DNA of 64,000 nt from the NCBI GenBank assembly GCA_947624325.1, contig CANQJT010000006.1, positions 34,147 to 98,146 on the forward strand, read 5' to 3'. Positions 1-38,958 of the stretch are shown in pieces. The position numbers were made by a program, and so were the translations under genes. Numbering within the stretch: position 1 is the stretch's first letter; each line of letters opens with the position of its first letter. The DNA is from Candidatus Gastranaerophilales bacterium (GTDB lineage: Bacteria; Cyanobacteriota; Vampirovibrionia; Gastranaerophilales; Gastranaerophilaceae). The notes under the pieces were generated by a model. It ran no database searches, was not told the origin of the DNA, and was given only the letters and a program-made list of their open reading frames with translations.

Positions 1-1371
1 ATTTATAAAATCTTCATCAATATCACAAGCTTCTTCATCGCCTTGTGCCTTTGCTAATGCCTGTGCTTCAAACCTTTCCCTCTGGTCAACGGGATCAGTT
101 AATTCCGAAAACGCATTCGCTAATTCCCAGCCGTTAACTTTAGACTCAAAACGTTCCGTTAAACGAGGATTATTTCTGTGAACTTTTGCTAACGGAGAAA
201 TTTCTCTCGGATAATCAGTTATATGTACAGGTTGAATTATATATGGTTCAACTTTATCTTCAAATACAGCTTCAACGATTTTACCCCAGTTCATATTTTC
301 TTCAAGTTCAATGCCGAGTTCTTTTGCTGCTTTTTCAGCTTCCTCTGCTGTTGTAAATTGCGCAAAATCAACACCCGTAGCTTCTTTTATACTGCCTATC
401 ATGGTTTTTCTGTCCCACGGAGGAGTTAAATCTATTTCATTTTCGCCGTACTTAATTTTTGTTGTTCCTAAAACTTCTTTTGCAACAAATGCGACCATGT
501 TCTCTGTCAGGGTCATCATGTCGTTATAATCAGAATATGCTTCATAAAGCTCTATTGTAGTAAACTCCGGATTATGAAGTGAATCTATTCCTTCATTTCT
601 GAAACAACGGTTTATTTCAAAGATTTTTTCGCTTAATCCGCCTACCATAAGTCTTTTTAAATGGAGCTCGGGTGCTATTCTCATATACATAGGAATATCA
701 AGCGCATTATGGTGCGTTTCAAACGGTTTTGCATTTGCACCGCCTGCTTGTGAGTGAAGCATAGGTGTTTCAACTTCCAAAAATCCTCTTGATGTTAAAT
801 ATTCTCTTATTTTTTGGATTATTAACCCTCTTTTTCTGAAAGTTTCTTTAACTTCAGGGTTCATAATCATATCAACATATCTTTGGCGGTAACGGGTTTC
901 AACATCCGTTAAACCATGAAATTTTTCGGGCAGAGGTTTTAAGGATTTTGTTAATATTTCTAAATCTACCGTTTTTAAACTTAACTCGCCTCTCGGGGTT
1001 CTTCTTATATCGCCCGTAAAACCTACTATATCACCGATATCTATCATTTTTATAAGTTTTATTTTTTCCTCTGATATATTTTGTTTGTGTGAAAAAATTT
1101 GGATTTTGCCTGTATCATCCATTAAATCAATAAACATGCCCGTATTTCTGACTGCCATAACTCTGCCTGCAACACTGTAGCGGTCTTGGGTTTCTTCTCC
1201 AGCAGGTAAATCTTTGTATTTTTCCTGTAATTCTTTTGCGCTTGCCGTTTTAACAAATTTATACGGATAAGGATTTATTCCTCGTTCTCTTAATTCTTCT
1301 ACCTTATGCAATCTGCCTTGTCTGATTGTATCTATTGATGATGTTGTTTCTTTAACATTAGTATCCTGCAT
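1..1371 (-). CDS. lysS: lysine--tRNA ligase, class II; C-terminus cut by window edge
   Basis: Not in the ORF track because it runs off the window. Reverse-strand reading from ATG at 1369-1371 gives MQDTNVKETTSSIDTIRQGRLHKVEELRERGINPYPYKF...RYRQRYVDMIMNPEV...FEINRCFRNEGID..HNPEFTTIELYEAY, the usual LysRS-II OB fold and class II motifs. Confidence 0.9.
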   Translation of the reverse strand, partial: MQDTNVKETTSSIDTIRQGRLHKVEELRERGINPYPYKFVKTASAKELQEKYKDLPAGEETQDRYSVAGRVMAVRNTGMFIDLMDDTGKIQIFSHKQNISEEKIKLIKMIDIGDIVGFTGDIRRTPRGELSLKTVDLEILTKSLKPLPEKFHGLTDVETRYRQRYVDMIMNPEVKETFRKRGLIIQKIREYLTSRGFLEVETPMLHSQAGGANAKPFETHHNALDIPMYMRIAPELHLKRLMVGGLSEKIFEINRCFRNEGIDSLHNPEFTTIELYEAYSDYNDMMTLTENMVAFVAKEVLGTTKIKYGENEIDLTPPWDRKTMIGSIKEATGVDFAQFTTAEEAEKAAKELGIELEENMNWGKIVEAVFEDKVEPYIIQPVHITDYPREISPLAKVHRNNPRLTERFESKVNGWELANAFSELTDPVDQRERFEAQALAKAQGDEEACDIDEDFIN

Positions 1372-23550: not shown

Positions 23551-24558
23551 ATGAGTTTTAATAACATTAATAAAATTCTTATTATAAGGTTGGGAGCAAT
23601 AGGCGATGTAGTTCACACTACAAGTCTTTTTCGGGCAATAAAAAAATTTAACCCGAATATTGAAATACATTATCTTACAAATAAATTAACAGAACCAATA
23701 TTAATTTCAGACCCCGATTTAAATAAGGTAATTCCGGTAAAAGAAAAATTACGGCTATTTTCAGACTATACAAAAGAACTTGCCAAAACATTAAAAAAAG
23801 AACAATATGATTTGGCAATAAACCTTCAGCCGTCTTTAAAAATCAAATTATTATTATTTTTTGCAGGCATAAAAAAACAGCTTATTTATAAAAAAACATT
23901 TAAGCTTCATGCCGTAAAAAACTTCTGGCAGACGGGACTTAAGGTATTTCCGGAGTTGAAGGAAGAAAAAGAACTAAAATTATATATACCATCTGATGCA
24001 TCTGCCAAAGCAAAAGAAAAAACGAAAAATTTAAAACATCCCATTATTATAATTAATGCAGGCGGTGTATTTTCTAAAAGGCAGGGAAGAACTTATCCGA
24101 CAGACAAATGGCTTGAACTCGGAAAAAAAATTATTGATAAAATCGGCGGTACAATAATTTTAACGGGAGTAAATGAAGATAAAGAAATTCTTTTAGATTT
24201 AAATCAAATTCCCGGCTCCGTTAACCTTATAGGTGAACTTCCGCTTATTGATTCCTGTGCGGTAATATCTCAAGCAGATTTAATGCTTTCAGGGGACTCT
24301 GGTCCGCTTCACATAGCAACTGCTTTAGGGGTAAAATCCATAGGTTTATATGGTTCCATGCCTGTAAACAGAACCGGATGCTGGTGTAACGGAATAAATA
24401 TCGTTTCTTCTAAGAAATGTGTACCTTGCAACAGAAGAAAATGCAAATATTTAAAAAAATCCAAAAAACTTTTTGCTCCTTGTATGGAAGAGATTTCTAC
24501 AGAAACAATTATTAATACAATTGTAAAGATTTTAACGGGGGCAAAAAATGAAATTTAA
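23551..24558 (+). CDS. glycosyltransferase family 9 (LPS heptosyltransferase-like)
   Basis: ILIIRLGAIGDVVHTTSLFRAIKK N-terminus and GDSGPLHIATALG near the C-terminus are typical of GT9. Confidence 0.75.
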   Translation: MSFNNINKILIIRLGAIGDVVHTTSLFRAIKKFNPNIEIHYLTNKLTEPILISDPDLNKVIPVKEKLRLFSDYTKELAKTLKKEQYDLAINLQPSLKIKLLLFFAGIKKQLIYKKTFKLHAVKNFWQTGLKVFPELKEEKELKLYIPSDASAKAKEKTKNLKHPIIIINAGGVFSKRQGRTYPTDKWLELGKKIIDKIGGTIILTGVNEDKEILLDLNQIPGSVNLIGELPLIDSCAVISQADLMLSGDSGPLHIATALGVKSIGLYGSMPVNRTGCWCNGINIVSSKKCVPCNRRKCKYLKKSKKLFAPCMEEISTETIINTIVKILTGAKNEI

Positions 24559-25708
24559 AAGTAACACCCCTATATCAGATATTATTTTTGCCGCAATATT
24601 TTTTATATTATTATTTATTCCTATGCTTAAAATTGACCAATCAATAAATGCACCCGAAGAAAATAAAACCCTCGCTTCTTTTAAACCTTTAATTAACAGC
24701 AATAAGACAATAAATTATACTTTCGGCTTAGATTTTAATTCTTGGTTCAGTGACAGATTTTTCTTAAGAAAAAAAATGATAGCTATGTATAATTACCTTC
24801 ATTATGTTTTTTTCAAAAAAAATGATCAAGGTATATTTGACAAAGATAATGGTTGCTTTTATTTTGATTTTGAATTTAATCATTTTTTCTTTGCTCATAT
24901 TTATAAAGAATTTGAAAATTTATTTAAATTAAACGACTTTTGTAAAGAAAACAATATTAATTTGTATATTATAATGACACCCCAAAGACCTGATATCTAT
25001 CCGATTAAAAATAATCCGATATATAAAAATTACTCTAACAAAAAATTTATCAAATATATAAAATCAGTTGCTATAGATAAAAACCTTAAAATAATTTTCC
25101 CTTATGAAGAGATTAAAAAAGCATCAAAAAAACAAATTATGTATTATAAAATAGATTATCATTGGACAGACGATGCGGCATTTATTGCTTATAAAGAAAT
25201 TATGAAATTAATTAAAAAAGATTACCCTTTTGTAAAAATATTAAATGAAAATGATTTCGATTATTTTTATGATACAAAATTAAGAATAAACTATAATCAA
25301 TTAAAAGAATACGGCACTGTATTTAATCCTGTAGGAGTGTCAAAAAAAGATTTAAAAAACTTCAACAATGTTAAGTACAAATACTATAAACATAAAAATA
25401 TTGATAAATTACAAGATACATACATTGATGAAATGTATAAACGATTAAATTACTATTACTATCCTGAAGGAGCAGACTTAAGAGCAGCTCTTGTCGGCCC
25501 CAGTACGATTGAAGCTTTAAGTCATTCAATTCCGTTTACCTTTAAAAATGTATTAAAAGTTCGAACGAATGCTGTTAAAGGTATAAATGATTATAAATTA
25601 ATGAAACATTATAAAAAAATAATAATGGATTATAAGCCTGAAATATTAATTTTATGTGTTCCATACCAATCATTATATACATTTGAAGAATATTTTGCGG
25701 AGGAGTAA
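24548..25708 (+). CDS. DHHW/AlgJ-AlgX-like SGNH-fold protein (partner of MBOAT)
   Basis: N-terminal TM anchor, a KIDYHWTDDAAF motif (DxHW) and a position immediately upstream of an MBOAT gene. Confidence 0.65.
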   Translation: MKFKSNTPISDIIFAAIFFILLFIPMLKIDQSINAPEENKTLASFKPLINSNKTINYTFGLDFNSWFSDRFFLRKKMIAMYNYLHYVFFKKNDQGIFDKDNGCFYFDFEFNHFFFAHIYKEFENLFKLNDFCKENNINLYIIMTPQRPDIYPIKNNPIYKNYSNKKFIKYIKSVAIDKNLKIIFPYEEIKKASKKQIMYYKIDYHWTDDAAFIAYKEIMKLIKKDYPFVKILNENDFDYFYDTKLRINYNQLKEYGTVFNPVGVSKKDLKNFNNVKYKYYKHKNIDKLQDTYIDEMYKRLNYYYYPEGADLRAALVGPSTIEALSHSIPFTFKNVLKVRTNAVKGINDYKLMKHYKKIIMDYKPEILILCVPYQSLYTFEEYFAEE

Positions 25709-25710
25709 TT

Positions 25711-27126
25711 ATGCTATTTTCATCAATGACATTTATATATATTTTCCTCCCGATTGTACTTATTTTGTATTTTTCTTCAAATAAAAAATATCATAATATG
25801 ATACTGCTTATATCCAGCATAATTTTTTATGCATTGGGAGCATTAAAATATATACCTCTATTGTTCGGAATAATTTTTATAAATTATATAGGTGCATTAG
25901 CAATACAAAAATATGAAAAGTATAAAAAACTAATGTTGTTATTAACAATAACAATAAATCTGAGTTCTTTAATATATTTTAAATATTTTAATTTCATAAT
26001 AGATAATATTAATCATATTTTAAAATCAGATATAAGCTTTCCTGAAATAATACTGCCTATTGGAATTTCATTTTATACATTTCAGGCAATGTCATATATC
26101 ATCGATGTATACAGAGGTGAAGTTAAAGCACAAAAGAACTTATATAATATTGCATTATATATATGTTTATTTCCTCAGCTTGTTGCAGGTCCTATTATAA
26201 AATATCATGACATATCGGATCAAATAAAATCAAGGGAAATTAATCCCGATAATATTGTATTAGGTATTAAAAGATTTATAATAGGGCTCTCTAAAAAGAT
26301 GCTTATTGCAAACTTTTTAGGAATAACAGCAACTAAAGTATTTTCACAAGATCCATATACAGTCAGTCATTTTCAGGCATGGATAGGCGGAATATGTTAC
26401 GGTTTTCAAATATATTTTGATTTTTCGGGATATTCGGATATGGCAATCGGCTTGGGATTAATTTTCGGTTTTAAATTTATGGAAAACTTTAATTATCCTT
26501 ATATTTCAAGGTCGATGTCCGATTTTTGGCGCAGATGGAATATTTCATTATGTTCCTGGTTTAAATCATATGTATATATACCATTAGGCGGAAGCAGACT
26601 CGGTAAATTGAAAACTATCCGCAATTTATTAGTTGTATTCTTTTTAACCGGTCTATGGCACGGTACTAATTGGATTTTTATTATTTGGGGGTTATGGAAC
26701 GGTTTATTTGTTATTCTGGAAAAAATTATTAATCTTAAAAAAATCGAAGAAAAATATACTCAGTGGTGGGTTAAATTACTTCAACACTGCTATTTTTTAC
26801 TAATTATAATCATTGCCACGGTTATTTTCCGCTCTAACGGACATGATATTGATTACACAATCTCATATATTAAAAATATGTTCGGTTTAATACAAACAGA
26901 TACAAGTGCAATGGTATTTTCAACATATTATTACCTTGGTACAAAGGAAATAGTTATTTTAATAATTGCAACTTTATGTTCAACTCCATTATTTAAAAAT
27001 ATTACAAATGTGAAAAATAAAGTCTTAAGAATATTTGCAAATTTATGGATTTTAATATTGTTTATCCTGTCAACAATTTCAATAGCAGCAACAACTTATA
27101 ATCCGTTTATTTATTTTAGATTTTAA
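25711..27126 (+). CDS. MBOAT-family membrane O-acyltransferase (AlgI/DltB-like)
   Basis: ISFYTFQAMSYIIDVYRG, FWRRWNISL and TGLWHG (catalytic His) motifs, with about 10 TM segments. Confidence 0.85.
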   Translation: MLFSSMTFIYIFLPIVLILYFSSNKKYHNMILLISSIIFYALGALKYIPLLFGIIFINYIGALAIQKYEKYKKLMLLLTITINLSSLIYFKYFNFIIDNINHILKSDISFPEIILPIGISFYTFQAMSYIIDVYRGEVKAQKNLYNIALYICLFPQLVAGPIIKYHDISDQIKSREINPDNIVLGIKRFIIGLSKKMLIANFLGITATKVFSQDPYTVSHFQAWIGGICYGFQIYFDFSGYSDMAIGLGLIFGFKFMENFNYPYISRSMSDFWRRWNISLCSWFKSYVYIPLGGSRLGKLKTIRNLLVVFFLTGLWHGTNWIFIIWGLWNGLFVILEKIINLKKIEEKYTQWWVKLLQHCYFLLIIIIATVIFRSNGHDIDYTISYIKNMFGLIQTDTSAMVFSTYYYLGTKEIVILIIATLCSTPLFKNITNVKNKVLRIFANLWILILFILSTISIAATTYNPFIYFRF

Positions 27127-28889: not shown

Positions 28890-30419
28890 TTAATTAATTG
28901 TATGAATTAAAAATATTTCATCAAATTTTTTTTCATTATATTTAATTTTTTTTGAATTCAATATATTTTCAATTTCTTCTATATCACTGCATCTAAAGTA
29001 TGTTTCATTATTTCTTGAATATATCCAAAAATTTATATTTATATTTTCATCGATGAATTTAGCAGAAACTTTACTTGTTTCTTTAAAATCTATATTGCCA
29101 TATGAACGAATATCAATGGGATTAGTATATTTAAAATATTTTTTATAATATTTTACGGCATATAAAAGCCCCTCACAGGCTAATATTTTTTCACCGTCCT
29201 TATAATTTTTTAAAAGTTCATGCGAACATTCTTTTACTTTTTCTCTCAACTCTTTACTTCTTGACCTGTCATACTGCAGTTTATAATCGACCATAGCATT
29301 AAAAGGTATATTATAAAACGGAATTTTTACTCCTAAAATAAAAATCATTAATATAGTTAGAATTACATTAGTTATAAAATTTATACCTTTAATTTTAGTT
29401 TTTATCGGAGAAATATCAAAATTCTTAGCTAACAGCATTATATAAATCGGAATAAAATATAGCATTAATCTTCCGGTAAACGGGTATATTTTCAATACGG
29501 AAGCACTAAATGCAAAGACATAGATTAAACTTACCAAAATTGCTTTTTCTTTGTTATCTTTATATAAAATTCCGCATCCTAAAACCAATAAACCTATTAA
29601 AAATATAACATTTTTAAAATTAAAGTCATAAATAAAATACATACAATTATTTTGCAGATAATAATATAAGAAATTATTATAAAAAACTATACAGCCGTTT
29701 TGGTCAAAATCACACCAGAAATTCCGCATAAAATGAAATACTTGTAAATCATAAAAACATAAAGCTAACCCTGATAAAATAACACCTGATAATATAATTA
29801 ATGCCTTAGGATTTAACTTCCTTCCCGATATCATTTTAGTTATTACTATTGCCGGTATTATGAACATAGATGGAAATGAAAATAATACAAGAATAATTGA
29901 TGCTATAGTGTAAATCAATGTCTTTTTTATGGAAATATTACTTATATCCAACCATTTATATAAAATCAAAAGCATTATACAAATAACTACATCGGAAGAA
30001 TATTGTTTAAATTCGGCGCTGTAATATACAAGACCGATACTAACGGAAAATATAAACATACCGGCAATTATACCGATTTTATTTTTAATAACATCTTTTA
30101 AAAGAATATAAAATAAAAATAATGAAGATATTCCGGATACAACAGGTAATAATCTAAAAGAATATTCATTAAACCCAAACAATTTAACTATCACAAACGT
30201 TCCCAAAAGAAATAAAGGAGGGGATTTTTGGTTTGCTTCCAACGGTAAAAACATTCCCCAAATATCTCTATCTATAAAGGATAAACTAAGCATTATTTCA
30301 TCAAGCCAAAATGGCAATTTTGCAAAGTATAATTTAAACCTTAAATAAATTCCTATTAAAATAATTAAGGTGATAATTATAAAATAAACTAAATTAATTA
30401 TCTTTTTTTTATTATTCAT
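28890..30419 (-). CDS. GT-C-fold-like membrane glycosyltransferase (ArnT/PMT-like), paralog 1
   Basis: 509 aa with about 11 TM segments, PFWLDEIMLSLSFIDRD (DE motif in the first loop), AEFKQYSSD and a C-terminal soluble domain. Clearly paralogous to 30435..31940 and 33797..35324. Confidence 0.5.
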   Translation of the reverse strand: MNNKKKIINLVYFIIITLIILIGIYLRFKLYFAKLPFWLDEIMLSLSFIDRDIWGMFLPLEANQKSPPLFLLGTFVIVKLFGFNEYSFRLLPVVSGISSLFLFYILLKDVIKNKIGIIAGMFIFSVSIGLVYYSAEFKQYSSDVVICIMLLILYKWLDISNISIKKTLIYTIASIILVLFSFPSMFIIPAIVITKMISGRKLNPKALIILSGVILSGLALCFYDLQVFHFMRNFWCDFDQNGCIVFYNNFLYYYLQNNCMYFIYDFNFKNVIFLIGLLVLGCGILYKDNKEKAILVSLIYVFAFSASVLKIYPFTGRLMLYFIPIYIMLLAKNFDISPIKTKIKGINFITNVILTILMIFILGVKIPFYNIPFNAMVDYKLQYDRSRSKELREKVKECSHELLKNYKDGEKILACEGLLYAVKYYKKYFKYTNPIDIRSYGNIDFKETSKVSAKFIDENININFWIYSRNNETYFRCSDIEEIENILNSKKIKYNEKKFDEIFLIHTIN

Positions 30420-30434
30420 TTAGTTTCCTTTTAA

Positions 30435-31940
30435 TTAATCTAATGTATAAATCAGATACATTCCCTCAAAAAAGTTAATTTTATAATCTTTTTTAAGATT
30501 TTCAATTATATAATCACTATCGCTGTCTCTGAAATAACATTCGTAATCTCTGCCCCAGAACCATAATTTATAAAAATCCTCATTCTTTTTAATAAACTTC
30601 TTTGAGGTTTTATTAACTTTAACAGTCCAATCTTTATCATATTCACTAAATGCAATATTTTTTTTATAATTATAATATTTTTTATAATATTTTGTATAAA
30701 ATATAAATTCTTCAGAAGCTAAAATTTTATCTTCAAGTTTAAAATTATCAAGTACAAAAAGAGTATATTCTTTTGCTTTGGATCTGCTTTCCAAAGAACG
30801 AACTCTATCAGTAGGTTTTCTGAAATCAATCATACTTTCGTAAGACACAGTTAAAAACGGAATATTTACTTTTAAAATCGAAAATATAATTATTAATAAA
30901 AATATTCTATATATAAATTTATATTTAGGTAATAAATCACTTAAATCAAATAATTTAACAATCATTATTATAGATACCGGTAAAAAATATAGTGCTAATC
31001 GTTCTGAAAAAGGATATATTTTTAATAAAGAAAAAATTAAAGATAAACAAATTAAAATTATTAATTGAAAAAATCTGTATTTGTTCTCTTTTAGAACCAA
31101 TAAAAAACCGATAATTATTATGGGAGTTATTTGAAAAATAAAATAATGGTGATAATTATACAACAGGTATTTTATTGTTACTAAAAACATTTGAATAAAA
31201 GATTTTTCGCTAAACCAATATTCTTTCATAAAATGACAAACGTTCACATCAAAGAAATATAACCAGAGTCCGGAAAATATAACTCCGCCCAAAATAAAGA
31301 AAGTTTTATTTGTAATTTTCTTTTCTTCAATATATTTGGCAAGAACAATTGAAACTATTATAAACATTGAAGGAAACGATAAAAACACAAATACAACGGA
31401 TAGCAGTGTATACAATATTATTTTTAAATTTGAAATATTTTTAAAACTGATAAATCGATAACTGTATATTAATAAAATAGAAATCAGAACATCAGTTGAA
31501 TAAGGTTTAAATTCCGCACAATAAAAAATAAGAGGGATAGAAAATGCATAAAGAAAAATACCAAAAACTGCACCGATTTTATCCTTAACAAATTCTTTTA
31601 ATAAAAAATAAAATCCAAACATAGACAAAATTCCGGATATGTATGGAACAAATCTAAAAGCATATTCATTAAACCCGAATATTTTAACACTTATAAAAAC
31701 AAGGCATAAAAATAACGGCGGAGCTTTTTGATTTGCCTCTAACGGGAAAAACATTCCCCCAATATCCCTATCTATAAAAGATAAACTCAGCATCATTTCG
31801 TCTAACCAAAAAGGCGCTTTATATAAATTTAATCGTGTTCTGAAATAAATACCCAAAATAAAAATTACTGTAATTACAGTGAAAAAAAGTATATTTCCAA
31901 AATTCTTATTCTTACTAATTTTACAAATATTATTAAACAT
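30435..31940 (-). CDS. GT-C-fold-like membrane glycosyltransferase, paralog 2
   Basis: 501 aa with PFWLDEMMLSLSFIDRD, ANQKAPPLF and AEFKPYSTD. Aligns with paralog 1 along its length. Confidence 0.5.
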   Translation of the reverse strand: MFNNICKISKNKNFGNILFFTVITVIFILGIYFRTRLNLYKAPFWLDEMMLSLSFIDRDIGGMFFPLEANQKAPPLFLCLVFISVKIFGFNEYAFRFVPYISGILSMFGFYFLLKEFVKDKIGAVFGIFLYAFSIPLIFYCAEFKPYSTDVLISILLIYSYRFISFKNISNLKIILYTLLSVVFVFLSFPSMFIIVSIVLAKYIEEKKITNKTFFILGGVIFSGLWLYFFDVNVCHFMKEYWFSEKSFIQMFLVTIKYLLYNYHHYFIFQITPIIIIGFLLVLKENKYRFFQLIILICLSLIFSLLKIYPFSERLALYFLPVSIIMIVKLFDLSDLLPKYKFIYRIFLLIIIFSILKVNIPFLTVSYESMIDFRKPTDRVRSLESRSKAKEYTLFVLDNFKLEDKILASEEFIFYTKYYKKYYNYKKNIAFSEYDKDWTVKVNKTSKKFIKKNEDFYKLWFWGRDYECYFRDSDSDYIIENLKKDYKINFFEGMYLIYTLD

Positions 31941-32031
31941 ACTTATATTATATTATAAGCATATTTAAAATTGAAAAATTTTAGTAATTTTAAACTTTTG
32001 ACATTAAAATATTAAGCAAGATAATAATAAT

Positions 32032-33804
32032 ATGAACAAAATAATAATATCTCAAATTAACACTATCGCAGGGGACATATCATTTAATAAAGAAAAGATT
32101 CTTGAATGCATAAAAAAGGCAAAGAATCAAAAAGCCGATTTAATAATTTTTCCCGAGCTTGCTTTAATAGGATATCCGTTCGGCGATATATTTATAAGGC
32201 ATAAATCAATTATTGAAAGAGAACTGAAAGCTTTAAATGATATTGCCAAAAATACCGAAAACATTACAGCTCTGGTTGGTTTTGCGGAGCCTACAAAAGA
32301 TGCCAACAAGAAACCTTTTTATAATTCTGTTGCAGTAATACAAAACGGAAAAATTATTGATACGGTAAGAAAAAGATTACTGCCAAACTATTCGGAATTT
32401 AATGACTACAGATATTTTGAGCCCTCTGACAAAGTATCAAAAATTTTGGAATTAAACGGTGAAAAATTTGGGATTTTGGTTTGTGAAGATAGTTTTAATG
32501 ATAAATCATTTTTTAAAGATAAATGTATATATAAAATTGATCCTGTTAAAGAATTAATGGAACAAAAGCCTCAAACATTAATAAATTGTTCATGTTCCCC
32601 CTCAAGATGCGGTAAAGAATATATTAAAAACGGATTATTTTCATCTATCGCAAAAAAATACAAAGTAAATTATATATATGTAAATCAAGCAGGATATGCG
32701 GATAATCTTTGTTTTGACGGAGCATCAAGAATATATAATACAAATGGTGAATTAACATTAAGAGCAAAATCTTTTGAAGAAGATTTTGTAATAACAGACA
32801 ATTTCCAAGGAGAAATAAATCCGCTGCCGGAAGGCTCGGATAAAAAATTTGAATTGATTGATTTGAAATCTGATTATGAAAAGGATTTAGACAGGACATA
32901 TAAAAGTATAATTTTCGGTATCAGAGAATATTTTAGAAAGAACGGATTTAAAAAAGCGGTTTTAGGTCTGTCGGGAGGGCTGGATTCTTCTATCTGTGCA
33001 GTACTTCTTTCTGATGCACTCGGCAAAGAAAATGTATGGGGAATATCTATGCCAAGCAGAATAACCTCTAAAGAAAGCAAAAATGATGCAAAACTATTAG
33101 CGGAAAATCTCGGAATAAACTTTTTTGAAATTCCTTTAGCTGATGCTATTGACCCTTTAAAATCAATGTTAAATACTGCTTTTACAAATATAGAAACCGA
33201 AAAGTTTGAAAAATCAACAACAATAGAGAACTTACAGGCACGATTAAGAGCGACTCTTTTATGGAGTATATCAAATGAGCATAAACAAATGCTCCCTATT
33301 GCAACAAGTGATAAATCAGAGGCTTATATAGGTTATGCCACGGTTAACGGAGATATGTCAGGCGGATTTGCACCTATTGCGGATGTAACTAAAACAAAAC
33401 TATTTGCTCTCGGAGATTTTTTAAATAAAAATCGAGCACACAAAAATGCAATTCCGCAGGCAATTTTAGAAAAGCCTCCGGGAGCTGAATTAAAAATTAA
33501 TCCTAAAACAGGTAAAACAGTTTGTGCCGAAGAAGAAAACATGCCTTATGAATTCTTGGACGAAATTATTTGGAATGTTGAAACAAAAGGTTATGGTTTT
33601 GACGAATTAATAAAGCATGAATTTTATTATGAAAAAAATAATAATCTTTCAATTGAACAAAAAAAAGAATGGATTAATAAATTTTATTGGAAATCCAAGT
33701 GTGCTGTCTACAAATGGCATATTATTCCGCCATCGGTTGTTGTTGATGTAAAATCAATTAACTCTGTCGAATACCGCCAGCCGATTATTTCAAAAGTTAA
33801 TTAA
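32032..33804 (+). CDS. nadE: glutamine-dependent NAD+ synthetase
   Basis: N-terminal CN-hydrolase domain (FPELALIGYP...VCED) and C-terminal NAD synthetase domain (LGLSGGLDSS). Confidence 0.9.
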   Translation: MNKIIISQINTIAGDISFNKEKILECIKKAKNQKADLIIFPELALIGYPFGDIFIRHKSIIERELKALNDIAKNTENITALVGFAEPTKDANKKPFYNSVAVIQNGKIIDTVRKRLLPNYSEFNDYRYFEPSDKVSKILELNGEKFGILVCEDSFNDKSFFKDKCIYKIDPVKELMEQKPQTLINCSCSPSRCGKEYIKNGLFSSIAKKYKVNYIYVNQAGYADNLCFDGASRIYNTNGELTLRAKSFEEDFVITDNFQGEINPLPEGSDKKFELIDLKSDYEKDLDRTYKSIIFGIREYFRKNGFKKAVLGLSGGLDSSICAVLLSDALGKENVWGISMPSRITSKESKNDAKLLAENLGINFFEIPLADAIDPLKSMLNTAFTNIETEKFEKSTTIENLQARLRATLLWSISNEHKQMLPIATSDKSEAYIGYATVNGDMSGGFAPIADVTKTKLFALGDFLNKNRAHKNAIPQAILEKPPGAELKINPKTGKTVCAEEENMPYEFLDEIIWNVETKGYGFDELIKHEFYYEKNNNLSIEQKKEWINKFYWKSKCAVYKWHIIPPSVVVDVKSINSVEYRQPIISKVN

Positions 33805-35324
33805 TACTATTTAATTGCAAAGCATAATATAAGCCATAATGAAATTCTTTAAATGTAATATTTTTCTCTTTTAATTTTTGTTTAAAAAAATCTTTTGCAT
33901 ATATTTTTTCTTTATCATCATAGCTGTTTTCAAATGTTATCCAATATTTATAATTTAATGATTGGTTATTAAAAAAATCCGTAAAACTCTTTTCCCATTG
34001 TTCTTTGGAATTAATGTAAATTTCAACTTCCCAATCCACAGTTTTATTAAATTTGTACATTTTTTTATAAAAATTAAATGAATCATAATATATATAGTTA
34101 AATAAAAATTTATCATTATCAGAACAGTTATTAAAAATATCAACGGTTACATTTTTAATATTATTTCTTTCGTCAACAGACATATTTATAATTTTATAAT
34201 AATTGAATTTTTCATCAAATTTTATTTCAAAAATACAAAATAAAATTATAAAAAGTAAAAAGACTTTAAGTACATTAAAAATTATCAAAGGTATTTTTTT
34301 TATAAATACAGGATTATCAGCAGATTTAATAATAAACATTATAAATAAAGGAATTAAATATAATATTATTCTTCCTGTTAAAGGATATATTTTCAAATAT
34401 GAAGCAGCTGATATAACAGCTATAAGAATTATATAAAATATTGTATTTCTTTTTTCAATAATTAAATATAATAATCCTAATAAAATTAACAAAAATGTTA
34501 ATTTAATATAATAAGGCTGTAATACCCCCCCCCGGTTGTATCACAAATAAATAAAAATCTTTAAACGTTGCATATAAAGAAGTTGCCGATGGTTTAATAA
34601 AACCGGTTTGCCAATCATTTTCCAATATTTCTGTTACTCTTAAATCTTTATATACTAAATATAGATATAGACTTGAAGTGAAACTTCCTAAAAATATCAT
34701 TACACCCGGAAATGTTATTTTCTTTTCTTCAATAAATTTTGCAATCATCATAGAAGGAATTATTAATATTGAAGGAAATGAAAATAATATAATTATATTT
34801 GAAATTATCAGATATACTATTACCTTAGCCCATATTGATTTAAATGGCTGTATATTTTTTAAACTCATATATTTATAACTAAATAGTAATAATATACAAA
34901 TTAAAACATCCGAAGAATAAGGTTTAAATTCTGCAGAATAATAAATGAGTACAGGATTAACAGCAAATAAAAATAAACCTGTTAATAAAACCAACTTACT
35001 TTTTATATAATCATTTAATAAAAAATAAAAAGCAAATAATGATAGAATTCCGGATAATAAAGGAATTAATCTTAAACTATATTCATTATAGCCGAAGATT
35101 TTTTGCACTATTAAAACTAATGAACAAAACAAAGGCGGAGCTTTTTGATTATCAACTAAGACATGAAAAAAATTTAAAAATTTTTCATCAATAAAACTTT
35201 GACTTAAAACTATTTCATCTATCCAAAAGGGTATTTTAAATAAATATATTTTAAGTCTTAAAAAAATTCCAAGAACTACAATAAGAATAACAAATATATA
35301 AAAAATAATATTAAATTTTTTCAT
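33797..35324 (-). pseudogene. GT-C-like paralog 3, split into ORFs 34503..35324 and 33797..34492 by a frameshift at a G9 tract
   Basis: The N-terminal half carries PFWIDEIVLSQSFIDEK...AEFKPYSSD and the C-terminal half LKIYPLTGRIILYLIPLF, matching paralogs 1 and 2. Removing one G from the tract fuses both halves into about 508 aa with no stop. Confidence 0.8.
34525..34533 (-). repeat. homopolymer C9 (G9 on the coding strand)
   Basis: Counted directly: aataCCCCCCCCCggttg. Confidence 0.95.
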
Positions 35325-36864
35325 TTACTTTTTCTTGTTCAAATTTTTCAAGTTTTAATGCGACTTGTTTTCTGTTGCTTTGATATCCGTACATAAAGTA
35401 AATTACAATTCCAAGTACCAGCCACAATGGGAATAACATGGCAGAAGTTTTAACTTCTCTTAAAGCAACAAACATAAGTCCAGAGCAGAATAAAACACCT
35501 ATAATAGGGAAAATCGGGCAGCATGGGACTTTAAATGAACGAGGTCTATCGGGTTCTGTTTTTCTCAATATTAAAATTCCTATACAAACTATTACAAAAG
35601 ATGAAAAAGTACCAAAAATAGCGAGTTCTGCCGCAACCTGCATATTAATAAACAATGTACCGATTAAAATTAATATTGTTGAAAGTATTGTAATGACCCA
35701 AGGTGTTTTAAATTTAGGGTGAACTTTTTTCATAACAGACGGTAAAAACCCGTCACGAGCCATAGCATACAAAATTCTTGTAGTACCGAATTGAAGCACT
35801 AAAAGAACCGAAGTAAGTCCTGCCAAAGCTCCGATTGCAATAGCACCTGCGAACCAATCCTGTCCCACAAAGCTCATAGCGGCAGCTATAGGAGCTTTTA
35901 AATCAATCTGCCCCATAGGCATCATGCCTGTTAATACGACAGTTACAAGCCCGTATATAATTGAGCATATAACAAGTGAACCTATTAAGCCGATAGGCAG
36001 GTTTTTCTGCGGATCTTTAGTTTCTTCTGCGGCTGTTGATATTGCATCAAAGCCGATATAAGCATAGAATATTGCAAATGCACCCATTAAAATACCTTTA
36101 ATGCCTGAAGGTGCAAAAGGAGTCCAATTTTCAGGTCTTACATAGAATGCTCCTACACCTATAAATAGGGCAATAACAGCCACTTTAACAAATACCATTA
36201 TTTTAGCAAAGTTAGCGGATTCTTGAATACCTTTAAATAATATCCCTGCAATAACAAGTATAATAAACATGGCAGGCAGATTAACACAAATAGGAATACC
36301 CAGGAAATGGGGTATTACAGCATCAGGGTTGGCTGTAATTGCGCTTTGATAATCATTTACAAGCCAAACTGGCGGATTTTTTATACATTCAGGCAGGAAA
36401 GGAAATCCTTCCAAAAGTTTTATAAGATAACCCGTCCAGCTGGATGCAACTGCAATTGTACCGATTGCATATTCAAGCATTAATACCCAGCCCATCATCC
36501 ATGCAGGAAACTCACCCATTGTAGCAAATGTATATATATAAGCACTTCCTGATACAGGTATCATAGAAGCGAATTCAGCATAACATAGTGCAGGAAAGAT
36601 ACATGCAACAGTAACCAGCAATATGGAAATAACCAAAGCAGGGCCTGCTCCGACACGTTCTGCCGTTCCTATAACAGCTGAGCCAATCATAACAAATATC
36701 CCAGCACCTATAATTGCACTGATACCGAGTATTATTAAATCAAAAGCATTTAGACTCTTTTTTAATCCGCATTTAGCCGATTCTTCCAAAAACTCATCGG
36801 GATTTTTTCTCCTGAGCAAATTGCATACAAAGTTTTCCAGTAAATTTTTTGCGGGTTTTTGCAT
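35311..36864 (-). CDS. APC-superfamily amino acid permease (cationic amino acid transporter-like)
   Basis: 517 aa with 12 or more TM segments and GAGIFV...YAEFASMIPVSGSAYIY...AYIGFDAISTAAEE motifs. Confidence 0.8.
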   Translation of the reverse strand: MQKPAKNLLENFVCNLLRRKNPDEFLEESAKCGLKKSLNAFDLIILGISAIIGAGIFVMIGSAVIGTAERVGAGPALVISILLVTVACIFPALCYAEFASMIPVSGSAYIYTFATMGEFPAWMMGWVLMLEYAIGTIAVASSWTGYLIKLLEGFPFLPECIKNPPVWLVNDYQSAITANPDAVIPHFLGIPICVNLPAMFIILVIAGILFKGIQESANFAKIMVFVKVAVIALFIGVGAFYVRPENWTPFAPSGIKGILMGAFAIFYAYIGFDAISTAAEETKDPQKNLPIGLIGSLVICSIIYGLVTVVLTGMMPMGQIDLKAPIAAAMSFVGQDWFAGAIAIGALAGLTSVLLVLQFGTTRILYAMARDGFLPSVMKKVHPKFKTPWVITILSTILILIGTLFINMQVAAELAIFGTFSSFVIVCIGILILRKTEPDRPRSFKVPCCPIFPIIGVLFCSGLMFVALREVKTSAMLFPLWLVLGIVIYFMYGYQSNRKQVALKLEKFEQEKVNEKI

Positions 36865-36884
36865 TTATTTGTTTCCTTTTTATA

Positions 36885-37775
36885 CTATACATTGCACGGT
36901 TGTTTTTTCAACAAAGGGAAGCCGAGCTCCTGTCTTTGTTCAACATATAATTTTGCAACCATTGCAGCCATTCTTCTAACTCTATTTATATAATTAATTC
37001 TTTCATCACGGCTTATAACACCTCTTGCATCCAGAAGATTAAATGTATGAGAGCATTTCAATACATAGTCATAAGCAGGTAGCACTATTTTAGCCTCTAC
37101 GCAAGATTCAACTTCCGCTTGAAATAAATCAAACATTTTAAATAATCTTTCTGCACTTGAGTATTCAAAATTATATTTTGATTGTTCAATTTCATTTTGC
37201 AGGTATATTTCGCCGTATTTTAATTCTTTATTCCACATAACATCATAAACGGAATCAACATTTTGTAAGTACATAGCAATACGTTCAAGCCCGTATGTAA
37301 TTTCAAGGGCAACAGGTTTTATTTCAAGCCCTCCGACCTGCTGGAAATATGTAAACTGAGTTATTTCCATGCCGTCAAGCCAAACTTCCCAGCCGACACC
37401 TGCAGCACCTAATGTGGGTGATTCCCAGTTATCTTCAACAAATCTTACATCATGCTTGGATAAATCTATTCCCATAGCCTCTAAGCTCTTTAAATAAAGC
37501 TCTTGAGAGTTTTCGGGCGAAGGTTTTAATATAACCTGATATTGAAAATAATGACCGAGCCTATTGGGATTTTCGCCGTATCTTGCATCGGTCGGTCTGC
37601 GGCATGGTTCTACCATTGCGGTATTCCAAGGTTCAGGCCCAAGTGAACGCAAAAATGTTGCAGGGTTCATTGTGCTTGCACCCTTTTCTATATCATACGG
37701 CTGTTGTATTATACAACCGTAATCACTCCAAAACTTCGATAAATTCAATATTAATTCTTGAAACGTTAAACCCAC
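36885..37775 (-). CDS. glyQ: glycine--tRNA ligase alpha subunit
   Basis: [18 protein letters not shown]...[18 protein letters not shown]...[21 protein letters not shown] start. No glyS adjacent. Confidence 0.95.
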
Positions 37776-37932: not shown

Positions 37933-38958
37933 ATGAAAGTTTGCTGGGAATTATTTAATTCAATAGAAATGGGTACCGACGGCAGTGTATATGTATGCTG
38001 TGAACAGAGAGTTTCTAAATTTTCGTTAGGTAACATATTTAGAGACAAGTTTGAAGATATATGGAACTGTGAGAAATTAATTAAAATGCGTGAAGCTGCC
38101 CTCCAAGGTAAGTATCCCTATTGTAATCATGGGATATGCGAAAAACTGTCACGGGGGGGGGGAAGGAAAAGAAATGAGTTATTTACCAACGTTCTGCCGT
38201 CTTATAAACCTGTAATGTCTTCTTTCCCTACGCATGTAGCATTACCCATTGCTCGTGATTGCAACGCAAAATGTATTTTTTGCAGAGATAAAATTATTAC
38301 TTCCGAAAAGGAACAAATTAAATCATTCAACAACAAGTTTAATAATATCTATCTGCCTATTATGAAAAATGTCAATATTTTTACAGTAAATGATATGGGC
38401 GATGCGTTTGGTTCAAAATTTTCAAGACAAGTTATAGAGAATACTATAAAAAGATATCCTCAAATAAAATTTAAGATAATGACAAATGGAATTTGCGCCA
38501 GTGAAAAATTTATAAAAAAACTTGATTTGGAAAACAGAATAATTGAATTAGCTATTTCCATTAATGCGACTACAGCTAAAACACATTATAAAATTTTTAG
38601 GGTTCGGGGATGGAAGCTATTATTAAAAAATCTTGAATATCTTTCGCAGTTAAACAAAATTGGGGAAATACCTTATTTACATTTTAAATTTGTTGTTTGC
38701 AGTAAAAATTGGAAAGAAATGGCGAAATTCGTAAAATTTGCTTCAAAATATGGTGCAAATGCAGATTTTTGGGAAGTTAGAAATTATTATGCAGTAAAAA
38801 ACAAATACGAAGATCTTGCAGTACATAATGAAACTCATAAGGATTTTGATGCTTTTGTAAAATTACTTGCAAATCCGATTTTTGATGAAAAGCATGTTAC
38901 TCTTTCACCTTTATTGATGAAATTAAGAAAGAAAGCTATTTCGGAAAAAGAAGCATAA
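37933..38958 (+). CDS. radical SAM protein with an N-terminal SPASM/twitch-like Cys motif
   Basis: CNAKCIFC (CxxxCxxC) at residues 110-117. Residues 4-69 carry CWELFNSIEMGTDGSVYVCC...GNIF..FEDIWNC, resembling the normally C-terminal SPASM motif CX9-15GX4C. A G10 tract lies between the two parts. Confidence 0.6.
   Translation: MKVCWELFNSIEMGTDGSVYVCCEQRVSKFSLGNIFRDKFEDIWNCEKLIKMREAALQGKYPYCNHGICEKLSRGGGRKRNELFTNVLPSYKPVMSSFPTHVALPIARDCNAKCIFCRDKIITSEKEQIKSFNNKFNNIYLPIMKNVNIFTVNDMGDAFGSKFSRQVIENTIKRYPQIKFKIMTNGICASEKFIKKLDLENRIIELAISINATTAKTHYKIFRVRGWKLLLKNLEYLSQLNKIGEIPYLHFKFVVCSKNWKEMAKFVKFASKYGANADFWEVRNYYAVKNKYEDLAVHNETHKDFDAFVKLLANPIFDEKHVTLSPLLMKLRKKAISEKEA
38153..38162 (+). repeat. homopolymer G10 inside the radical SAM ORF
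   Basis: Counted directly: tcacGGGGGGGGGGaagg, encoding S-R-G-G-G-R. Confidence 0.95.

Follow-up and report, generated by a model that had tools for sequence, protein, structure and literature searches.

A poly-G tract at the break of a GT-C glycosyltransferase gene: a candidate phase-variable locus, in its OFF state, in an uncultured gut Gastranaerophilales bacterium

What is known of repeat-mediated phase variation comes almost wholly from pathogens that grow in culture, such as Campylobacter, Helicobacter, Neisseria and Haemophilus. Phase variation of a GT-C-type enzyme is a feature of the gtrABC clusters for O-antigen glucosylation in Salmonella and Shigella, where GtrC is a GT-C-type transferase and control is epigenetic (Dam/OxyR at the promoter). 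Here we describe a gene for a GT-C glycosyltransferase that is split at a run of nine G residues in a 64,000 nucleotide stretch of DNA (the window) from Candidatus Gastranaerophilales bacterium (contig CANQJT010000006.1, 122,304 bp). The window's GlyQ and GAPDH belong to 90%-identity protein clusters that bear the names Candidatus Gastranaerophilales, Gastranaerophilaceae and Avigastranaerophilus. It appears likely that gut Gastranaerophilales have independently evolved a Campylobacter-like poly-G/C phasome that takes in GT-C, nonulosonic-acid/glycan-modification, radical SAM and prepilin-type genes, with the split gene as an OFF-phase member. The closest known counterparts are the intragenic G/C homopolymers of Campylobacter jejuni, which form contingency loci in genes for lipo-oligosaccharide, capsule and flagellar glycosylation (PMC6321876, PMC8437040). 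In Campylobacter, 53% of tracts have length 9, 26% have length 10 and 77% lie within open reading frames (ORFs); the cut-off for a tract is 7 or more, and switching has been shown for 8 or more (PMC6321876). Poly-G/C tracts also occur in glycan genes of Helicobacter, where some tracts close to the 3' end swap the C-terminus of the product and do not abolish it (PMC2823697).

Exactly nine G residues lie on the minus strand at the point where the gene is broken (C9 on the plus strand), and the tract and the two gene fragments are as follows.

34525..34533, minus strand: G9 homopolymer, the frameshift site and presumed slippage tract, encoding the Gly codons of ...QPGG(G)...
34503..35324, minus strand: 5' fragment of the GT-C gene, encoding the 273-amino-acid product of the putative OFF state, with a W34-x-D36-E37 first-loop motif and a PMT_2-like region
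33797..34492, minus strand: 3' fragment of the same GT-C gene, a 231-amino-acid ORF in the -1 frame, with the remaining transmembrane (TM) helices and the C-terminal alpha/beta domain

A sequence-only reading of the window had proposed that the gene is broken at G9 between these two ORFs and that G8 or G11 would rescue a product of about 508 amino acids, and both points stand. Around the tract the minus strand reads ...ATACAACC GGGGGGGGG TATTACAGCC..., or ...GTGATACAACC-GGGGGGGGG-TATTACAGCCTTATTATATTAA... in a codon-style split, and the 273-amino-acid product terminates in ...FVIQPGGGITALLY, where the Gly codons are followed by six sense codons before the stop. When the tract length was changed in silico, the products had 274 (G7), 508 (G8), 273 (G9), 275 (G10) and 509 (G11) amino acids, so one uninterrupted gene is restored by G8 or G11, and the junction in the restored product is spanned by the peptide …FVIQPGGVLQPYYIK…. 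The locus thus has two features of a simple sequence repeat (SSR) phase-variable gene, a homopolymer of hypermutable length within the coding sequence and a frame that toggles between intact (G8/G11) and truncated (G7/G9/G10) as repeat units are gained or lost.

The restored protein was aligned with two paralogs encoded in the window and 12 database homologs (P0001-P0012) in a 15-sequence alignment, A1. The G8 product can be aligned along its whole length with all 12 homologs and with both paralogs at 35% identity each, which bears out the earlier match to proteins of 509 and 501 amino acids. It satisfies 26/26 invariant alignment columns, on both sides of the break, and eight of the invariant residues lie downstream of it (S308, Y313, P314, L321, P325, K333, D336 and Y419). 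The frameshift at G9 is the single lesion in the 508-amino-acid gene; off-frame stops are frequent in sequence of 26% GC, and still no second lesion is found within 1.5 kb.

An AlphaFold2 model of the fused product, built with the 15-sequence alignment, folds as one GT-C protein (predicted TM-score 0.82, mean predicted local distance difference test score 77), with a helical membrane domain and a small C-terminal alpha/beta domain. Each of its 20 best Foldseek matches in the PDB is a GT-C enzyme (STT3, PglB, ArnT, AftA/AftB, DPY19, Pmt4, Pmt1/2, ALG3 and ALG9), the best of them with a probability of 1.00 and TM-scores of 0.50-0.57. Similarity to Pfam PMT_2 (PF13231, cut-off 26.1 bits) amounts to 19.1 bits for the restored protein, 30.4 for the 501-amino-acid paralog and 17.7 for the 509-amino-acid paralog, and many database homologs carry PF13231 or bear a GT39 name. 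Directly after the first helix (TM1), all 15 sequences share W34 and E37, and at least 90% of them have D36. An acidic first-loop motif is typical of GT-C enzymes, and the W34/D36/E37 pattern, as judged from the alignment, matches it. The tract Gly residues fall in a low-confidence inter-helix loop of the model (residues 262-269).

The restored protein resembles ArnT, PMT and STT3-PglB in fold, in its weak PMT_2 similarity and in the acidic D-E motif after TM1, and it resembles ArnT further in its length of ~500 amino acids with a small C-terminal soluble domain. It differs from them in that it shares no more than 13% identity with any solved structure, a sequence-profile search of the PDB with alignment A1 gave no match and no NCBIfam model was passed by the GT-C proteins. 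No WWD-type oligosaccharyltransferase motif was noticed on reading alignment A1, for which no formal search was made. The earlier assignment of the gene product as a GT-C glycosyltransferase is well supported by the model and the structure matches, and holds at the level of fold.

Long G/C runs are far more frequent than base composition predicts, both in the window and in related genomes, as expected of SSR phase-variable loci. The window contains only two G/C runs of six or more, as had been noticed before: the C9 at 34525..34533 and a G10 at 38153..38162. Counts fall geometrically down to length 5 (11 runs), are zero at lengths 6-8 and rise to one each at 9 and 10; the two runs of at least 9 compare with 0.011 expected by geometric extrapolation, and dinucleotide shuffles of the window gave 0.11 expected G9 matches. 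A scan of one genome per species yielded 78 loci, mostly from Gastranaerophilales metagenome-assembled genomes (MAGs) of rabbit, mouse, ruminant and other guts, and run statistics were taken from 58 low-GC loci (637 kb). Here the counts were 135, 15, 1 and 0 for lengths 5, 6, 7 and 8, followed by a second peak of 9, 5 and 1 at lengths 9, 10 and 11, so that 15 runs of at least 9 were observed against 0.18 expected. The 9-10 length mode of the Gastranaerophilales tracts is the same as that of Campylobacter (PMC6321876).

Seven of these 15 tracts lie within GT-C homologs, which account for 15% of the sequence; a binomial test gave p = 6e-4 with eight GT-C tracts counted, one of which, a C10 in locus L015 that lies 40 nt past a GT-C stop codon, was later reclassified. 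All seven are in frame, within open frames of 497-556 amino acids, as against about one third expected if GT-C tracts were decaying. They occur at window-equivalent residues 162-163, 208, 238-239 and 337-339, and the focal tract lies at 267-270; these five different loop positions indicate that GT-C tracts have been created repeatedly. Apart from the reclassified C10, the tracts outside GT-C genes (seven of eight) are in surface or modification genes of the following kinds.

Caps_synth/Gly_transf_sug glycosyltransferase gene
GT9 heptosyltransferase gene
FkbM methyltransferase gene
PglD-like acetyltransferase gene
radical SAM gene
two prepilin-type genes, with the tract at the 5' end

The two prepilin-type genes are homologous and come from two other Gastranaerophilales MAGs; each carries its tract (G11 at L044 3976..3986, G10 at L080 3932..3941) at the extreme 5' end and encodes an N_methyl motif (...FTLAEVLITLGIIGVVAA...), and they are candidate phase-variable pilins or pseudopilins. 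Locus L015 (33% GC, three tandem GT-C copies, G9 and C10 tracts) and locus L031 are labelled 'uncultured Muribaculaceae' and carry GT-C genes of Gastranaerophilales type; the taxon labels of these MAGs are probably wrong, or the contigs mis-binned.

Differences in tract length between near-identical strains were found at several of these sister loci. The GT-C homolog P0009, from a related species, has G10 and is intact (509/525 amino acids) in L014, L089, L090 and L091, and has G9 and is split (176+332 amino acids, OFF) in L086 and L087; in L088 an A-to-G change gives the same OFF frame. The contigs fall into three strain groups, with identities of 97.3-99.9%. At the FkbM tract, G9 (372 amino acids) in L086 and L088 contrasts with G8 (131+142 amino acids) in L087, on contigs that are 99.75-99.9% identical, and the PglD-like tract is G9 in L014 and G8 in L086. 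The length comparisons among L086-L091 are backed by several concordant assemblies. The PglD-like change swaps the C-terminus of the product, as described for some Helicobacter tracts (PMC2823697), a system that differs from the present one in lineage and gene families. An ortholog of the P0009 GT-C gene in L017 (5953..7620, 85% identity) has an in-frame insertion of ~40 amino acids (…NPVSHFTADSSSPYKCSLFKVATPKFRSRSLSRNFLGHYS…) just upstream of a G10, which may be a small inserted element.

Four of the tracts (G9-G10) fall within 7.9 kb in L014 (538..7302), in its Caps_synth glycosyltransferase, GT-C, FkbM and PglD-like genes, and this glycan cluster has counterparts in L086, L087 and L089 (4295..14475). 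In the sister strain L089 the cluster runs on into Polysacc_synt_2, DegT, PglD_N, Epimerase_2, NTP_transferase and CTP_transf_3 genes, which are of nonulosonic-acid type. By analogy, the layout strongly recalls the flagellin and capsule glycosylation islands of Campylobacter.

A length change was also seen at the second tract of the window, which lies in a radical SAM gene.

38153..38162, plus strand: G10 tract, in frame (ON) in the window
37933..38958, plus strand: radical SAM gene (341 amino acids) with an N-terminal twitch/SPASM domain; the G10 lies in the linker to the radical SAM core

Other assemblies of the same species carry other lengths: this tract is G10 in the window and in L001 (341 amino acids), G9 in L084 (93-amino-acid product), a contig that is otherwise identical over 554 nt, and G8 in L085 (80-amino-acid product), from a 97% identical strain; L084 and L085 have ~1.3x coverage, and their tract calls could contain sequencing slippage. 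The G10 state is taken as ON because a match to NF033640 (N-terminal-twitch radical SAM) runs across the tract. A fusion created by the tract was considered as the source of the SPASM-before-radical-SAM order and rejected, as the known NF033640 architecture spans the tract. Repeat variation in this lineage is thus recorded at one homologous locus (GT-C) and at FkbM, PglD-like and window radical SAM loci. A radical SAM gene at the syntenic position next to glyQ in L006 also carries a tract (C9 at 391..399, G9 on the coding strand) and is out of frame, with 194 amino acids vs 323 at -1; it was not accepted as orthologous to the window gene, given a BLASTP E of 2e-4 over 70 amino acids only.

We regard the focal gene as probably a slipped-strand contingency locus caught OFF, because its single lesion lies exactly at a tract of hypermutable length class, because such tracts are in non-random excess, are enriched in the GT-C family at independent sites and are overwhelmingly in frame in other species, and because ON and OFF alleles are seen in a GT-C homolog and at the neighbouring tract. 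Several observations weigh against it. In the consensus assemblies from which tract lengths were taken, all six that carry the focal tract have G9 (the source MAG contig, L001-L003, L004 and L083), with no repeat-number variation among them. An exact look-up of the G8, G10 and G11 products in a collection of 15 billion proteins found none of them, a homolog search returned no near-identical intact protein and none of the closest homologs aligned (0/12, P0001-P0012) has a tract at the focal position. The closest sister genomes, L005 and L006, lack the focal gene and have nadE directly next to the permease gene, so the focal gene is dispensable and could simply be decaying. Some variant contigs have 1.3-3.5x coverage, and single tract calls may include sequencing or PCR slippage errors. 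The earlier proposal of a phase-variation switch therefore gains comparative support, from tracts of 9-11 nt and ON/OFF alleles in relatives, and lacks length variation at the focal tract itself; likewise, the suggested look at related genomes found tracts of varying length in GT-C homologs elsewhere and none at the focal position.

The main rival reading is a recently fixed pseudogene, in which an extra lineage-specific GT-C paralog was inactivated when it gained one base at a mutation-prone G run, is now being lost and undergoes no adaptive switching. We consider this unlikely, though a real alternative. The G9 in 6/6 assemblies with no ON allele on record and the empty syntenic site in L005 and L006 speak for it, as could L083 (1..280; ENA ERZ27249567, 1.5x coverage), from a strain that is 98.8% identical and has G9. 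In L083 a 1-nt deletion 14 nt downstream of the tract (TTATTATAT to TTATATAT) brings the 3' fragment into the frame of the tract, and for its first 95 nt, which precede the tract region, neither the window nor the loci have any matching sequence; the further deletion and the unrelated 5' sequence could mark a decaying remnant. L083 may be chimeric, a remnant that has lost its 5' part or a structural variant, and was rejected as an ON allele, since with an unmatched 5' end and 1.5x coverage it is indistinguishable from a chimera or remnant. Multiple lesions or lost conserved residues, which mark a decaying pseudogene, are not found: there is one frameshift, all invariant residues are kept and three diverged strain variants still have an open 3' fragment. 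The 3' fragment differs from L083 by four nonsynonymous and three synonymous changes, too few for power in a comparison of nonsynonymous and synonymous rates (dN/dS). The lesion also lies exactly in a tract length class that is demonstrably variable in sister genes. The sequence-only reading had expected a plain pseudogene to show G9 fixed together with further disabling mutations; the first half of this is seen in the assemblies, yet the second is not. A fixed state and an OFF phase are hard to separate because such a tract would revert readily, and all that distinguishes the contingency-locus reading from the pseudogene reading is whether the tract reverts at an appreciable rate.

Two further alternatives concern the G9 allele itself. 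Homopolymers are error-prone and the ENA assemblies all come from a single study and pipeline, which would favour a consensus error in which the true tract is G8 and the gene intact; this is highly improbable because the same G9 occurs in five further independent assemblies, among them an independent Logan assembly and the contig of a diverged strain, and at other tracts this pipeline tells G8, G9 and G10 apart. The exact 273-amino-acid product is present on five other contigs, from three ENA assemblies at ~7x (L001-L003, SPAdes-style) and one Logan assembly, whose contig (L004) is reported for four samples. A scan of JGI metagenomes with the tract flanks and a variable gap gave 0 matches. L001 and L002 differ from the window by 22 and 11 single-nucleotide polymorphisms (SNPs), respectively, none of them within the GT-C gene. 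All but one of these SNPs lie in 36784..37611, in glyQ and the 5' part of the permease gene, and the other ~9 kb are identical; the cluster suggests a patch of recombination, or assemblies in which strains are mixed. The other alternative, that G9 is leaky and RNA polymerase slippage or -1/+2 ribosomal frameshifting yields some full-length enzyme, is compatible with the other readings. Transcriptional slippage on runs of at least nine identical bases is documented in bacteria, and the stop lies only six codons after the tract. The 7/7 in-frame GT-C tracts in relatives suggest in turn that the frame matters at the DNA level, and we think a leaky allele very unlikely.

Under the contingency-locus reading, 33797..35324 (minus strand) would form one integral-membrane glycosyltransferase gene encoding a GT-C enzyme of ArnT/PMT/STT3 type, which, going by the fold only, may transfer sugar from a polyprenyl-phosphate-linked donor to an acceptor in the envelope, on its periplasmic side. 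The hypermutable G tract inside the coding sequence would govern expression, its length being altered by slipped-strand mispairing during replication. At G9, the state in the window, the frame would be shifted and the gene OFF, the 273-amino-acid product being without the last TM helices and the C-terminal domain; loss of one base (G8) or gain of two (G11) would yield the enzyme of 508/509 amino acids (ON). The focal locus would then belong to a group of poly-G/C contingency loci in Gastranaerophilales genes for surface glycans, pilins and modification enzymes, a group that would generate mixed surface phenotypes in the gut. Slipped-strand contingency loci are marked by reversible switching at about 1e-2 to 1e-5 per division with a change of phenotype; the focal tract would switch reversibly at a high rate, and the selective agent may be phage, antibody or other.

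The likeness to Campylobacter jejuni extends to several properties of the tracts: they are intragenic, have a length mode of 9-10 and exceed chance expectation by far in an AT-rich, gut-associated genome, several occur in one glycan cluster, a frameshift sets ON or OFF, and lengths differ between near-identical strains. The present case differs in that it concerns an unrelated phylum (Cyanobacteriota, class Vampirovibrionia/Melainabacteria) and an uncultured organism, and in that the main targets are integral-membrane GT-C enzymes and not soluble GT-A/GT-B transferases. The mechanism is classical, and what is new is the lineage (Melainabacteria/Gastranaerophilales) and the GT-C target family in a hypervariable island. 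The earlier impression that such a switch is undescribed for this lineage is in keeping with our literature search: in the library searched, no paper connects phase variation by homopolymers or SSRs with Melainabacteria, Gastranaerophilales or Vampirovibrionia. Two papers with both 'Melainabacteria' and 'phase variation', one on inverton-type restriction-modification systems and one on flagellin diversity, were judged tangential, and neither cyanobacteria nor uncultured occurs as a word in a 2025 review (PMC11868660).

The shared signature of tract type, 9-10 length mode and bias towards surface-glycan genes would extend this strategy to a new phylum-level group, uncultured commensals that are sister to the photosynthetic cyanobacteria, and to GT-C transferases. 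If the phasome reading is true, host immunity and phages would meet a stochastic mixture of surface glycans and pili on these commensals. Genes of this kind will as a rule be labelled 'split' or 'pseudogene' by MAG annotation pipelines, and read-level tract-length counts in existing metagenomes offer a testable handle on surface variation in Melainabacteria.

The focal gene and the amino-acid permease gene upstream of it share 14 nt, the start of the one overlapping the stop of the other; from this overlap the focal gene is predicted to be translationally coupled to the permease gene. The stop of the focal gene overlaps the convergent nadE. A promoter and terminator scan around the gene was uninformative because the counts matched the shuffle expectation in AT-rich DNA. 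The interval between nadE and glnA holds the two intact paralogs.

30435..31940, minus strand: intact GT-C paralog of 501 amino acids (PMT_2 30.4 bits), in the nadE-glnA island
28890..30419, minus strand: intact GT-C paralog of 509 amino acids, in the nadE-glnA island

This interval was compared across the window (28890..35324), L005 (4117..9034), L006 (3805..7162), L008 and L011. It contains one or two GT-C paralogs with <50% amino acid identity between genomes, in contrast to 83-99% for the flanking GlnA, GlyQ and permease; in L005, the closest sister genome, the flanks have 87-91% nucleotide identity, and amino acid identity is 98% for GlyQ, 96% for the permease and 99% for GlnA. The interval is thus a hypervariable island, like O-antigen or capsule loci, and the focal gene, being absent from L005 and L006, is an accessory, lineage-specific copy. 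The first ~600 nt of the 501-amino-acid paralog gene align with L005 in a 79%-identity block that spans nadE and the rest does not, which suggests that this paralog was shaped by mosaic replacement. As a putatively phase-variable, dispensable, strain-specific GT-C-type surface-glycan enzyme with several divergent copies per genome, the focal protein resembles those of gtrABC; it differs in that gtrABC switching is epigenetic and not by repeat slippage, and in that no gtrA or gtrB partner gene adjoins the focal gene in the window. More envelope-glycan machinery lies near the island, just upstream of tRNA-His, glnA and the GT-C genes: in 23551..27126, a GT9 heptosyltransferase gene comes before a pair for polysaccharide O-acetylation, made up of an MBOAT gene and a gene for an AlgX-like SGNH protein, the latter being the first of the two.

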